Assembly (NCBI GenBank): GCA_944327365.1 | Contig: CALVHI010000001.1 | Coordinates: 300 to 64,299, forward strand | Source: an uncultured Bacilli bacterium | Lineage (GTDB): Bacteria; Bacillota_I; Bacilli_A; RF39; UBA660 | DNA: 64,000 nt | Direction of reading: 5' to 3' | In this document: piece by piece, positions 58,268 to 60,197 of the stretch | Layout: every line of letters starts with the position of its first letter | Numbering within the stretch: the first letter of the stretch is position 1 | Notes under the pieces: model-generated | The model's input: only the letters and a program-made list of their open reading frames with translations | Database searches by the model: none | Told to the model about the DNA's origin: nothing | Made by a program: the position numbers and the translations under genes

Positions 58268-58412
58268 CTTACTTCACCATAATAATTATAACGTAAAGAA
58301 GAGTTTAATGCAAATAAATATTCGCCAAAATGCCAAGATAAACTGTAAAACGGGTATTTTATGATTGAATTAATCATTTAGATTCTTATATAATAATTTT
58401 AAGAGGTGGAAT

Positions 58413-58682
58413 ATGATTAAAGTAGAAAGAAATAAAGCTGTCTATAAAATTGATGGAAAAATAAAGGGAGAAGTAACTTATCCAAGCATAAATAGTAATA
58501 CTGTAAATATTAATCACACTTTTATTGATCCCTCATTAAGAGGAGAGGGTATTGCAGACAAAATGATGAAGGAAGTTTTTAAATATCTAAAAGATCAAAA
58601 TTTAAAAGTAATTTGCACTTGTTCTTATGCCTCCTCTTGGTTAGAAAAACATCCTGAATATCATGAATTAAAAGTTGATTAA
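58413..58682 (+). CDS. Small GNAT-family N-acetyltransferase (YjdJ-like)
   Basis: 89 aa; HTFIDPSLRGEGIADKMM...CSYAS matches the minimal GNAT family. Confidence 0.6.
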   Translation: MIKVERNKAVYKIDGKIKGEVTYPSINSNTVNINHTFIDPSLRGEGIADKMMKEVFKYLKDQNLKVICTCSYASSWLEKHPEYHELKVD

Positions 58683-58735
58683 CAAGGTATTTTATGCTAT
58701 AATCTATATGCATATTGAAGTATGTGCATAAATAT

Positions 58736-58842
58736 AAAAAAGCGGTGAATCCAGCCGTATAAATTGGAACTTAAAAAAGCGGTGAATCCAGCCATAAATT
58801 GGAACTTAAAAAAGCGGTGAATCCAGCCATAAATTGGAACTT
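58736..58842 (+). ncRNA. toxI: ToxI/AntiQ-like antitoxin RNA: three tandem 35-37-nt repeats plus a partial fourth
   Basis: AAAAAAGCGGTGAATCCAGCC(GT)ATAAATTGGAACTT x3, at 58736-58772, 58773-58807, 58808-58842. Promoter TTGATT-17-TATAAT at 58675-58703. Terminator and ToxN-family gene immediately downstream. Confidence 0.6.
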
Positions 58843-58853
58843 AAAAAAGTAGG

Positions 58854-58882
58854 TTAGAGACTCAACTCTAATCTTTTCTTTT
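58854..58882 (+). terminator. Rho-independent terminator between antitoxin repeats and toxin gene
   Basis: TTAGAG actcaa CTCTAA followed by TCTTTTCTTTT, as in toxIN loci. Confidence 0.5.
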
Positions 58883-58928
58883 AAGCGCTTTTATTGTATA
58901 ATTATATTAGTTACAAGGGGGAATAGAA

Positions 58929-59438
58929 ATGAGAAATTTTAAAATTGTACGTGTTGATTCAGATTATTGTGATTATTTAAGAAATTTTGATTCAAAAGTA
59001 ATTTATAACAGAGGAGTTAAAATTTTAAGACCATTTATAGGAGTTTTATTTAAAATTGATAAATGGGAATATTTTGCTCCTTTGTCAAGTCCTAAGCCAA
59101 AACATAAATCAATGAGAAACACTATAGACTTTTTTAAAATAAAAAATGGCGAATTAGGAGCAATTAATTTTAATAACATGATTCCTGTTACTAAGGATAA
59201 TTATATTGAAATTGATTTATACACAGAAGCAATAGATTTTAAAGAAAGAAAGTATCAAAAAATGTTAAAGGAACAGTTAGCATGGTTAAATGCTAATAAG
59301 CATCAAATTAAAGATCATTCTTATAAATTATATACAAAATATAAAAATAATAAATTATCATCAAGTATTAGACTTAGATGTTGCAATTATCCACTGTTAG
59401 AAAGTAAAAGCATAGAATTTAATAAAATTCACAATTAG
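58929..59438 (+). CDS. toxN: Type III toxin-antitoxin system toxin, ToxN/AbiQ family endoribonuclease
   Basis: 169 aa; FIGVLFKIDKWEYFAPLSSPKPKH...GAINFNNMIPV...RLRCCNYPLLE matches the ToxN/AbiQ fold family. Preceded by tandem repeats and a terminator. Confidence 0.8.
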   Translation: MRNFKIVRVDSDYCDYLRNFDSKVIYNRGVKILRPFIGVLFKIDKWEYFAPLSSPKPKHKSMRNTIDFFKIKNGELGAINFNNMIPVTKDNYIEIDLYTEAIDFKERKYQKMLKEQLAWLNANKHQIKDHSYKLYTKYKNNKLSSSIRLRCCNYPLLESKSIEFNKIHN

Positions 59439-59564
59439 GAAAGAAGGGATACTATAAAAGAAATATTCATTAACGATATTGATGATTTAAACTCGTTTTT
59501 TCATTTTACTAATAAAGACAATCTAAAAGATATAAATTTATATGGTTTAATTCCTAAAATAGGA

Positions 59565-60197
59565 ATGAATGCTAATAATATAGAAGAAACCAAAAAAGTA
59601 TTTTTTTCTGAGGGGAAAAAAGCCGTTTTAGAACTATGTGATGTGTGGCTTAAATGGATGATGAATAATGCTTTTGGACCAAAAGATTTGTATGGCTATT
59701 ATAAAGATATGTCTTTTGATAAAACAAGAAAATTAATGCTTTTTTGGAATGATGAATTTTTAAGTAAAGAATATTTAAAAGATGAAGAAAAATTAAATTT
59801 TGTTTTTGAAATAGTATATAATAAAATGAAAAATGCTGTTTATCTTTTACTCGATATAGATGATAGTATCTATTCTGTATCGGATATAGATGAAGCTAAA
59901 GATAAAATGTTAAAAAATAAAAATAAAATAGATTATTACTATATGAAAGAAATGTATGGATCATTTAGTAATATTGATAATAATAAAATGGAAAGATGGA
60001 ATATGCACACTTTATCTAATATGGGCATACTACCTGATAAAATAAGTTTAATTAAAGCTAGTAATGGTAATGTTGATATGTTATCAGTGATTATGGAAAT
60101 ATATGAAGAAAAAGGGAAAGAATATAATTGGGACATATTAAGTAAATATATTAATTATGTAAAAAGAAGGGAGATAAATAATGGGATTATTCGATAA
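59565..60197 (+). CDS. Hypothetical protein (true start may lie upstream, around 59454)
   Basis: 210-aa ORF. The frame stays open for 42 codons back to the toxN stop, with a strong SD (AGGAAAGAAGGG) 5 nt before an in-frame ATA. Confidence 0.4.
   Translation: MNANNIEETKKVFFSEGKKAVLELCDVWLKWMMNNAFGPKDLYGYYKDMSFDKTRKLMLFWNDEFLSKEYLKDEEKLNFVFEIVYNKMKNAVYLLLDIDDSIYSVSDIDEAKDKMLKNKNKIDYYYMKEMYGSFSNIDNNKMERWNMHTLSNMGILPDKISLIKASNGNVDMLSVIMEIYEEKGKEYNWDILSKYINYVKRREINNGIIR

Follow-up and report, generated by a model that had tools for sequence, protein, structure and literature searches.

Knowledge of the ToxIN family of type III toxin-antitoxin (TA) systems, of its RNA-pseudoknot antitoxin and of its role in abortive infection dates from 2009-2013, and examples in Firmicutes number in the hundreds. 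Loci of this type are recognized by a promoter, a tandem array placed after its -10 box, the open reading frame (ORF) of the toxin and, ahead of this ORF, a hairpin terminator (PMC3401426; PMC8860590), and published descriptions provide toxIN with one operonic promoter (PMC5086642; PMC8860590; PMC3401426). Within the ToxIN family the repeats measure 31-62 nt and occur in 1.9-5.6 copies, the toxin averaging 168 aa (PMC3401426 Table 2), and the repeats of the CptIN and TenpIN families are typically of 40-57 nt (PMC3401426). ToxN of Bacillus thuringiensis (ToxN_Bt) cuts at A/AAAA and AbiQ at A/AAA (PMC5086642; PMC8860590), and Ser51 is the only residue of AbiQ at which mutation led to loss of RNase activity (PMC5086642). 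Here we analyse the region 58675-59438 of a 64,000-nt stretch of DNA from an uncultured Bacilli bacterium (contig CALVHI010000001.1; hereafter the window, meaning this whole stretch, to which all coordinates refer). We read the locus as an intact chromosomal type III TA module that belongs to the ToxIN family and, within it, is nearest to the Gram-positive branch of AbiQ/antiQ and B. thuringiensis ToxIN, and on the sequence comparisons set out below we put the probability of this reading at about 0.88.

An earlier note on this DNA had described a TTGATT-17-TATAAT promoter, three tandem repeats of ~36 nt with a partial fourth, a hairpin terminator and a 169-aa protein of the ToxN/AbiQ family, arranged in the canonical type III organization. 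Each of these elements was recovered in our analysis, the repeats being of 37, 35 and 35 nt with a 7-nt stub and the GT noted at that time lying in unit 1. All four structural elements of type III loci are therefore present, the promoter being a preferred rather than a strict criterion, and the locus lies inside all the family ranges of PMC3401426 Table 2. Its features are as follows.

58675-59438, forward strand: the whole type III locus, with promoter P1, leader, three units and stub, terminator, P2 box, ribosome-binding site and toxN
58675-58703, forward strand: predicted promoter P1, with -35 TTGATT at 58675-58680, a 17-nt spacer, TG at 58695-58696 and -10 TATAAT at 58698-58703
58704-58735, forward strand: leader of 32 nt from P1 to the first full unit, including a degenerate copy of the 3' part of a unit (GCATAAATAT) and a small hairpin
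58736-58772, forward strand: toxI unit 1, 37 nt, AAAAAAGCGGTGAATCCAGCCGTATAAATTGGAACTT, carrying an extra GT
58773-58807, forward strand: toxI unit 2, 35 nt, AAAAAAGCGGTGAATCCAGCCATAAATTGGAACTT
58808-58842, forward strand: toxI unit 3, 35 nt, same sequence as unit 2
58843-58849, forward strand: partial fourth unit, 7 nt, AAAAAAG
58851-58882, forward strand: intrinsic terminator, a stem-loop at 58851-58874 (AGGTTAGAG-ACTCAA-CTCTAATCT) plus T-tract
58897-58902, forward strand: candidate second promoter P2, an exact -10 TATAAT between terminator and toxN
58917-58921, forward strand: ribosome-binding site, GGGGG, 7 nt 5' of the toxN ATG
58929-59438, forward strand: toxN, 169 aa, ATG start, TAG stop included, a ToxN/AbiQ-family endoribonuclease toxin by homology

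The Pfam search of the toxN product, a check that had been set beforehand, found PF13958 ToxN_toxin, whose cut-off is 25 bits, at 155.6 bits and E 1.5e-45, the match spanning positions 2-156 of the 159-position profile; the PADLOC AbiQ model scored 125.5 bits and PHROG 9764 scored 137 bits. Among solved structures the protein matches by sequence 4ATO of B. thuringiensis (E 2.9e-19), 2XD0 of P. atrosepticum (6.8e-15), 7D8O of E. coli (2.5e-14) and AbiQ 4GLK (6.4e-11), and the same four entries are the top PDB matches retrieved by Foldseek, with template modelling (TM) scores of 0.75-0.81, for an AlphaFold2 model built with 31 homologues as input (predicted local distance difference test, pLDDT, 90.6; predicted TM, pTM, 0.85). 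The S53-S54-P55-K56 motif (P-L-S53-S54-P-K56) aligns with T52-S53-P-K55 of the P. atrosepticum toxin (ToxN_Pa), S53 standing at the position of AbiQ Ser51 and ToxN Thr52; S54 is invariant in both protein alignments, and K56 is invariant among 31 subfamily sequences and nearly so when the characterized toxins are added. The ORF is full length and carries all subfamily-invariant residues, and the gene is under purifying selection as judged by the ratio of non-synonymous to synonymous substitution rates (dN/dS) of 0.11-0.19 against its orthologues, at dS 0.6-1.9. The ribosome-binding site has its equivalent in related loci, where GGAGG or GGGGG stands in the same position.

Compared with the characterized systems one by one, the locus shares most of its plan with AbiQ/antiQ of the L. 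lactis plasmid pSRQ900 (4GLK), which also consists of a promoter, 35-nt units, a terminator and a toxin of ~170 aa, the units being present in 2.8-2.9 copies there and in 3.2 here. By eye, the antiQ unit AAAATTGGAGTATCCAAGCCATAGTTGGAATTGAT aligns at ~70% with that of the window, the two having in common an A-rich boundary and the core TCCA(A)GCCATA..TTGGAA, and the catalytic Ser51 of AbiQ corresponds to S53. The proteins are, however, only ~31-33% identical, AbiQ is plasmid-borne whereas the present locus is chromosomal, and in pSRQ900 the ribosome-binding site directly follows the terminator with no TATAAT box. ToxIN of B. thuringiensis pAW63 (4ATO) is the best solved-structure match both by sequence and by fold (TM 0.76), and its ToxI units, of 34 nt in 2.9-3.1 copies, follow the same order of A-run, GGUG, 5' arm of stem B, ACC, loop and 3' arm of stem B (the two predicted stems, A and B, are described below). 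The Bt-type unit AAAATTGGTGTAGCCTTACCGTAGTAGGCACAAA and antiQ both share one plan with unit 2 of the window. Cleavage by ToxN_Bt at A/AAAA (PMC5086642) fits the AAAAAA unit boundaries of our array. On the other hand, protein identity to ToxIN_Bt is 28-32%, the Rfam ToxI model RF02519 finds the Bt-type unit and not that of the window, and the B. thuringiensis locus has no second -10 box.

ToxIN of P. atrosepticum pECA1039, the founding type III system (2XDB/2XDD), resembles the locus in toxin fold (TM 0.77-0.80), in operon logic and, by prediction, in an antitoxin processed into units that form H-type pseudoknots; it differs in its repeats, 5.5 copies of a 36-nt unit (AGGTGATTTGCTACCTTTAAGTGCAGCTAGAAATTC) unrelated to that of the window, and in cleavage at AA/AU. 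The nearest annotated plasmid and phage relatives are the toxIN loci of Fusobacterium polymorphum and Clostridium botulinum, with 39-42% identity, whose units (AAAAAGTCGGTGTACTCTACCGTATAAGTGAGAACTA and AAAAAGTCAGTGAGCCTCCACTGTATAAGCGAGGAGCTA, respectively) share the two-stem design and have stem sequences that compensate; unlike the locus described here, they reside on mobile replicons and have no TATAAT from terminator to toxin, and the Fusobacterium toxin carries a C-terminal extension of ~120 aa. Assignment to CptIN or TenpIN was considered and rejected, ToxN_toxin being the sole Pfam match, the CptN structure 4RMO giving a TM of only 0.46 (E 1.7e-2, Foldseek) and the 35-37-nt repeat falling outside the ranges of those families.

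The array was delimited by Tandem Repeats Finder at 58735-58849 with period 35, 3.2 copies, 97% matches and a score of 212; the unit coordinates listed above are a register set on the A-runs, every unit starting with six A. The GT insertion is the sole difference between unit 1 and units 2 and 3, and in the fold it adds two pairs to stem A, which then has five. Outside the array the window holds no copy of a 27-nt core of the unit, and none of 100 shuffles produced one. The leader contains a further register copy (58722-58756) which is 74% identical to the reference unit, and its hairpin is present in the minimum-free-energy fold. Downstream of the array the terminator stem of 9 pairs closes a 6-nt loop and is followed by TTTCTTTT; its fold energy is -11.8 kcal/mol (z = -3.1 versus shuffles), pairing of the A-tract with the U-tract can lengthen the hairpin (58840-58885), and a hairpin with the core GATTAGAG...CTCTAATC is found again across the related loci. 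P1 is a sigma-70-like site, TTGATT-17-TGcTATAAT, with 10 of 12 consensus positions and an extended -10 TG in the consensus scan. Promoter-like sites are not over-represented in the region (11 versus 15.6 expected), and the P1 match on its own is therefore weak evidence; a TTGAnT-17-TG-TATAwT site also stands upstream of the array in most related loci. P1 is thus a predicted promoter, by consensus match. It is the whole arrangement, not any single element, that is significant: the order promoter, array, hairpin and toxin is repeated in 75 of 80 homologous loci, far beyond chance.

These loci belong to a large set. Searches recovered 1689 ToxN homologues at E <= 1e-5, and among 599 pattern matches listed, in contigs of one genome per species, at least 584 loci encode relatives of the toxin; the best 80 of these (L001-L080), all from metagenome-assembled genomes of uncultured gut Bacilli and Clostridia, were taken for comparison. 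In 75 of the 80 a homologous array of 34-38-nt units, usually in ~3.2 copies, lies within 350 nt upstream of the toxin, and in three of the five array-less relatives the contig ends less than 210 nt upstream. The '.2' partial copy is retained in nearly all related arrays. Among further metagenome contigs (L081-L083) the protein encoded downstream of toxN is found exactly and the gene order is the same, L081 being 100% identical to the window over 58675-59438. In view of such numbers the statement of the earlier note that these systems are rare does not hold; nor are the toxins unannotated, given that the NCBI pipeline names them. What does stand is that the antitoxin RNA goes unannotated, with no Rfam family covering it.

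The relatives also provided the material for a structural model of the antitoxin. We extracted 133 distinct units from the related arrays and aligned their 5' and 3' halves separately by sequence similarity alone, fixing the register with N padding; plain MAFFT misaligned the 3' arm because the loop varies in length, and a few rows of the alignment are still out of register and were left so. In the model stem A joins unit positions 9-11 with 19-21 (GGU with GCC) and stem B joins 15-18 with 28-31 (UCCA with UGGA); the topology is of the H type, stem A enclosing the 5' arm of stem B in its loop, and single-stranded tails, the 5' one A-rich, flank the whole. Paired cells amount to 88.6% in this model versus 61.7% and 45.5% when the partners are slid by -1 and +1, respectively, the model having been read off the same unit variants in which the pairs were then counted. 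Changes on both sides of a pair were found in 32 cells versus 3.6 +/- 1.8 in column shuffles, and at three positions the compensatory exchange is clean, hardly any pair being broken; for alignment pair 12-24 the counts are 122 GC, 11 AU and 0 unpaired, pair 14-22 is UG in 116, CG in 8 and UA in 8, and pair 18-37 is UA in 111, CG in 14, GC in 6 and unpaired in 1. These computational counts, made among related sequences, indicate that the unit forms an H-type pseudoknot as ToxI does.

Several observations weigh against the assignment of the locus to ToxIN or against the structure proposed for its antitoxin. Units that share an array, or come from related genomes, cannot be counted as independent events. 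When single units are folded as nested structures they do not outdo shuffled sequences (z 0.26), as expected for a pseudoknot; such folding is uninformative here, and the pseudoknot is therefore carried by the covariation. RF02519, whose gathering score is 50 bits, gave no match at E <= 10 in 58300-59500, and in the positive control the same model scored 59.4 bits on a B. thuringiensis-type unit; the Rfam scan of the locus at E <= 10 produced chance matches only (mir-1502 and a plastid 5'UTR). In the toxin, the active-site Tyr29 of ToxN_Pa aligns to V30 and its Lys33 to Arg34, the invariant Y26 sitting close to V30 in the same loop. Last, the locus occupies a conserved chromosomal position between ftsK and ftsY with no obvious defence island or mobile element, a position which speaks neither for nor against a defence role. 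The antitoxin RNA of the window is, to judge from its sequence, of a known design and outside every curated RNA family; the repeat sequence itself found no match in a full-text literature search.

By analogy with ToxIN_Pa, ToxIN_Bt and AbiQ, P1 would transcribe the array and most transcripts would end at the hairpin. ToxN would then cut the precursor inside each AAAAAA run, leaving 2',3'-cyclic phosphate ends, so that the four A-runs would release three units of 35-37 nt. The stub AAAAAAG would supply the last 3' cleavage site and thereby free unit 3, which may be the reason why the partial copy is kept in nearly every relative. Each processed pseudoknot would bind head-to-tail to two ToxN monomers and block their active sites in a closed complex, probably a triangular one of three proteins and three RNAs. 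Were the supply of the labile RNA to fall or the complex to be disturbed, for instance when a phage infects or host transcription is shut off, ToxN would be set free to cleave A-rich cellular and phage RNAs, growth would stop and the infection would abort. A local variation on this scheme may be that toxN is also transcribed from P2, in which case the ratio of toxin to antitoxin would be set by two promoters and not by leaky termination alone.

This last proposal derives from the 54 nt that separate the terminator stem from the toxN ATG in the window, inside which the TATAAT of P2 is found. We counted the exact box in the window and the 80 relatives over an interval of 50 nt ending 10 nt before the toxin start, and found it in 61 of the 81 loci, versus 13.1 +/- 3.0 (maximum 21) in dinucleotide shuffles and 14.5% of equally AT-rich 50-nt windows from the same 81 loci. 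At the P2 position 13 loci have a promoter of at least 10 of 12 consensus positions with 17-18-nt spacing, versus 2.8 +/- 1.7 expected, and two of them (L042 and L052) show a perfect TTGACA-17-TATAAT; the intergenic sequence around the box is otherwise diverged among the relatives. Five plasmid-borne loci were compared, namely the original ToxIN (pECA1039) and AbiQ (pSRQ900) loci, one on a B. thuringiensis plasmid and the closest plasmid matches, from Fusobacterium and C. botulinum; in each of them the ribosome-binding site follows the terminator directly, and no TATAAT lies between terminator and toxin. Conservation of the box in the set of 81 loci and its absence from the plasmid loci therefore suggest a promoter of its own for toxN. 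We tentatively propose, at a little short of an even chance and from these sequence counts, that in this gut-Firmicute subfamily of ToxIN toxN may have its own sigma-70 promoter between the toxI terminator and toxN, antitoxin and toxin being separate transcription units.

It is also possible, though somewhat less likely than not, that toxIN is here a single-promoter bicistronic operon as in every published description, all toxN expression depending on terminator read-through and the box at 58897-58902 being no promoter but an inherited or AT-rich incidental motif, or an RNA element of the 5' untranslated region. The poor -35 of P2 in the window (TTTTCT at 58874-58879, 9 of 12 positions overall) tells against a second promoter and for this account, and shared ancestry of the loci means that conservation of the motif could partly be descent. 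AT-richness and descent are nevertheless poorly reconciled with the excess of the box over both shuffled and AT-matched sequence, with the 13 loci of near-consensus promoters, two of them perfect, and with the divergence of the surrounding sequence and the lack of the box in the five plasmid loci. Beside the proposed promoter we also observed, in the relatives with a strong P2 (L041, L044, L052, L060, L077 and L078), palindrome-like motifs in the P2 spacer (ACAAATGT, ACATATGT and AACAAATGTTT) ~30-60 nt before the toxN start; they are absent from the window, and could be operators allowing independent regulation of toxN.

As regards the module as a whole, it is very improbable that the locus is a decaying or domesticated remnant whose toxin gene and repeats persist by descent and no longer work as a TA pair. 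Such an account would draw on the ftsK-ftsY position, conserved in relatives and free of mobile-element hallmarks, and on the evidence that decay does occur in this lineage: in the orthologous locus beside ftsY of Ca. Caccenecus avistercoris (L003, 1-711) the array is lost, the unknown gene downstream is absent and toxN is diverged, with its 3' end disrupted by early termination or a frameshift, although this may be an example of decay or an assembly error. In the window, by contrast, the ORF, the S-S-P-K motif and the subfamily-invariant residues are all preserved under the constraint reported above, units 2 and 3 have one and the same sequence, from which unit 1 departs just by a GT that extends a stem, and promoter, terminator and ribosome-binding site are intact. 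A functional module whose main role is chromosomal stabilization or a stress response (addiction or persistence) and not abortive infection appears unlikely, yet deserves more weight than decay. ToxIN_Bt is reported to promote plasmid retention (PMC4615649), 57 of 67 toxIN loci are chromosomal (PMC3401426), and the locus adjoins the essential ftsK and ftsY and not recognizable defence genes; the characterized relatives ToxIN_Pa and AbiQ are, however, abortive-infection systems (PMC5086642), the protein matches the PADLOC AbiQ defence model and relatives are found on phages and plasmids. The two roles are not mutually exclusive.

Concerning the neighbourhood of this ToxIN module, ftsK and a GNAT gene precede the locus and ftsY follows it, with one gene of unknown function in between, in the same order in the two closest genomes; the flanking genes include a UPF0122 gene and their order is conserved in relatives. 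A mobile-element or prophage context was rejected on account of this conserved order and of a GC content of 0.22-0.29, like that of the neighbours. The window contains no second ToxN homologue. The GNAT gene (58413-58682, forward strand, 89 aa, Acetyltransf_CG 88 bits) has its 3' end inside the -35 of P1, which overlaps its stop codon (58680-58682), and is preceded by a promoter-like site, TTGAAT-18-TATAAT (58365-58394); read-through out of this gene could contribute to toxI transcription.

The gene downstream of toxN (59454/59565-60197) was considered as a third component of the module and rejected, as it stands beside toxN only in the two closest genomes and its distant homologues adjoin aspartyl-tRNA synthetase or NUDIX genes without ToxN; it had no match in Pfam, NCBIfam, PHROG or PADLOC. 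It was called as 210 aa from an ATG at 59565, and its frame, the same as that of toxN, is open from 59439 (to 60197, forward strand). The 37 codons upstream of that ATG are conserved in L001 and L002, L001 having Ile at the ATG codon itself, and all three genomes have ATA AAA GAA placed 5 nt downstream of a strong ribosome-binding site (GGAAAGAAGGGA), with no ATG, GTG or TTG in that stretch. The conserved upstream codons and a ribosome-binding site lacking a usual start therefore point to a non-canonical ATA (or ATT) start, probably at 59454, for a protein of ~247 aa; the homologues, a small family of 17 clusters, measure 237-319 aa and include the N-terminal part.

Further side observations concern the toxin and the transcript. 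Some ToxN homologues are longer: one cluster (P0076) of 237 aa has 4Fe-4S ferredoxin Pfam matches besides ToxN_toxin, and the toxin of the Fusobacterium polymorphum plasmid (L092:445-1317) reaches 290 aa owing to the C-terminal extension mentioned above; both may possibly be fusions or gene-calling artefacts. The terminator stem (the core given above, at 58851-58874 and its equivalents in L001-L080) is conserved although the toxins are just 58-68% identical, which exceeds the needs of a generic terminator and therefore may reflect an added role, e.g. toxin binding or a processing boundary. Right after the terminator, TTAAGCGCTTTT (58881-58892) is 83% complementary to AAAAGCGGTGAA at the unit starts (58738-58749, 58775-58786 and 58810-58821), and the minimum-free-energy fold of the whole transcript pairs it with unit 3; this complementarity could be an alternative structure or chance.

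As a ToxIN locus the module adds little to a known family. The branch to which it belongs is, however, very common in uncultured gut Bacilli and Clostridia, as the at least 584 loci found in contigs of one genome per species indicate, and its antitoxin RNA is invisible to Rfam, so that the antitoxins of this branch go unannotated. The 133 aligned units with their covariation could seed a new RNA family, and such a natural covariation set would constitute a map of the ToxI positions that pair and of those that contact the toxin. P2 would be a regulatory variation and not a new kind of system; if functional, it would nonetheless mean that the regulatory scheme accepted for type III systems has to be revised in the case of this branch.

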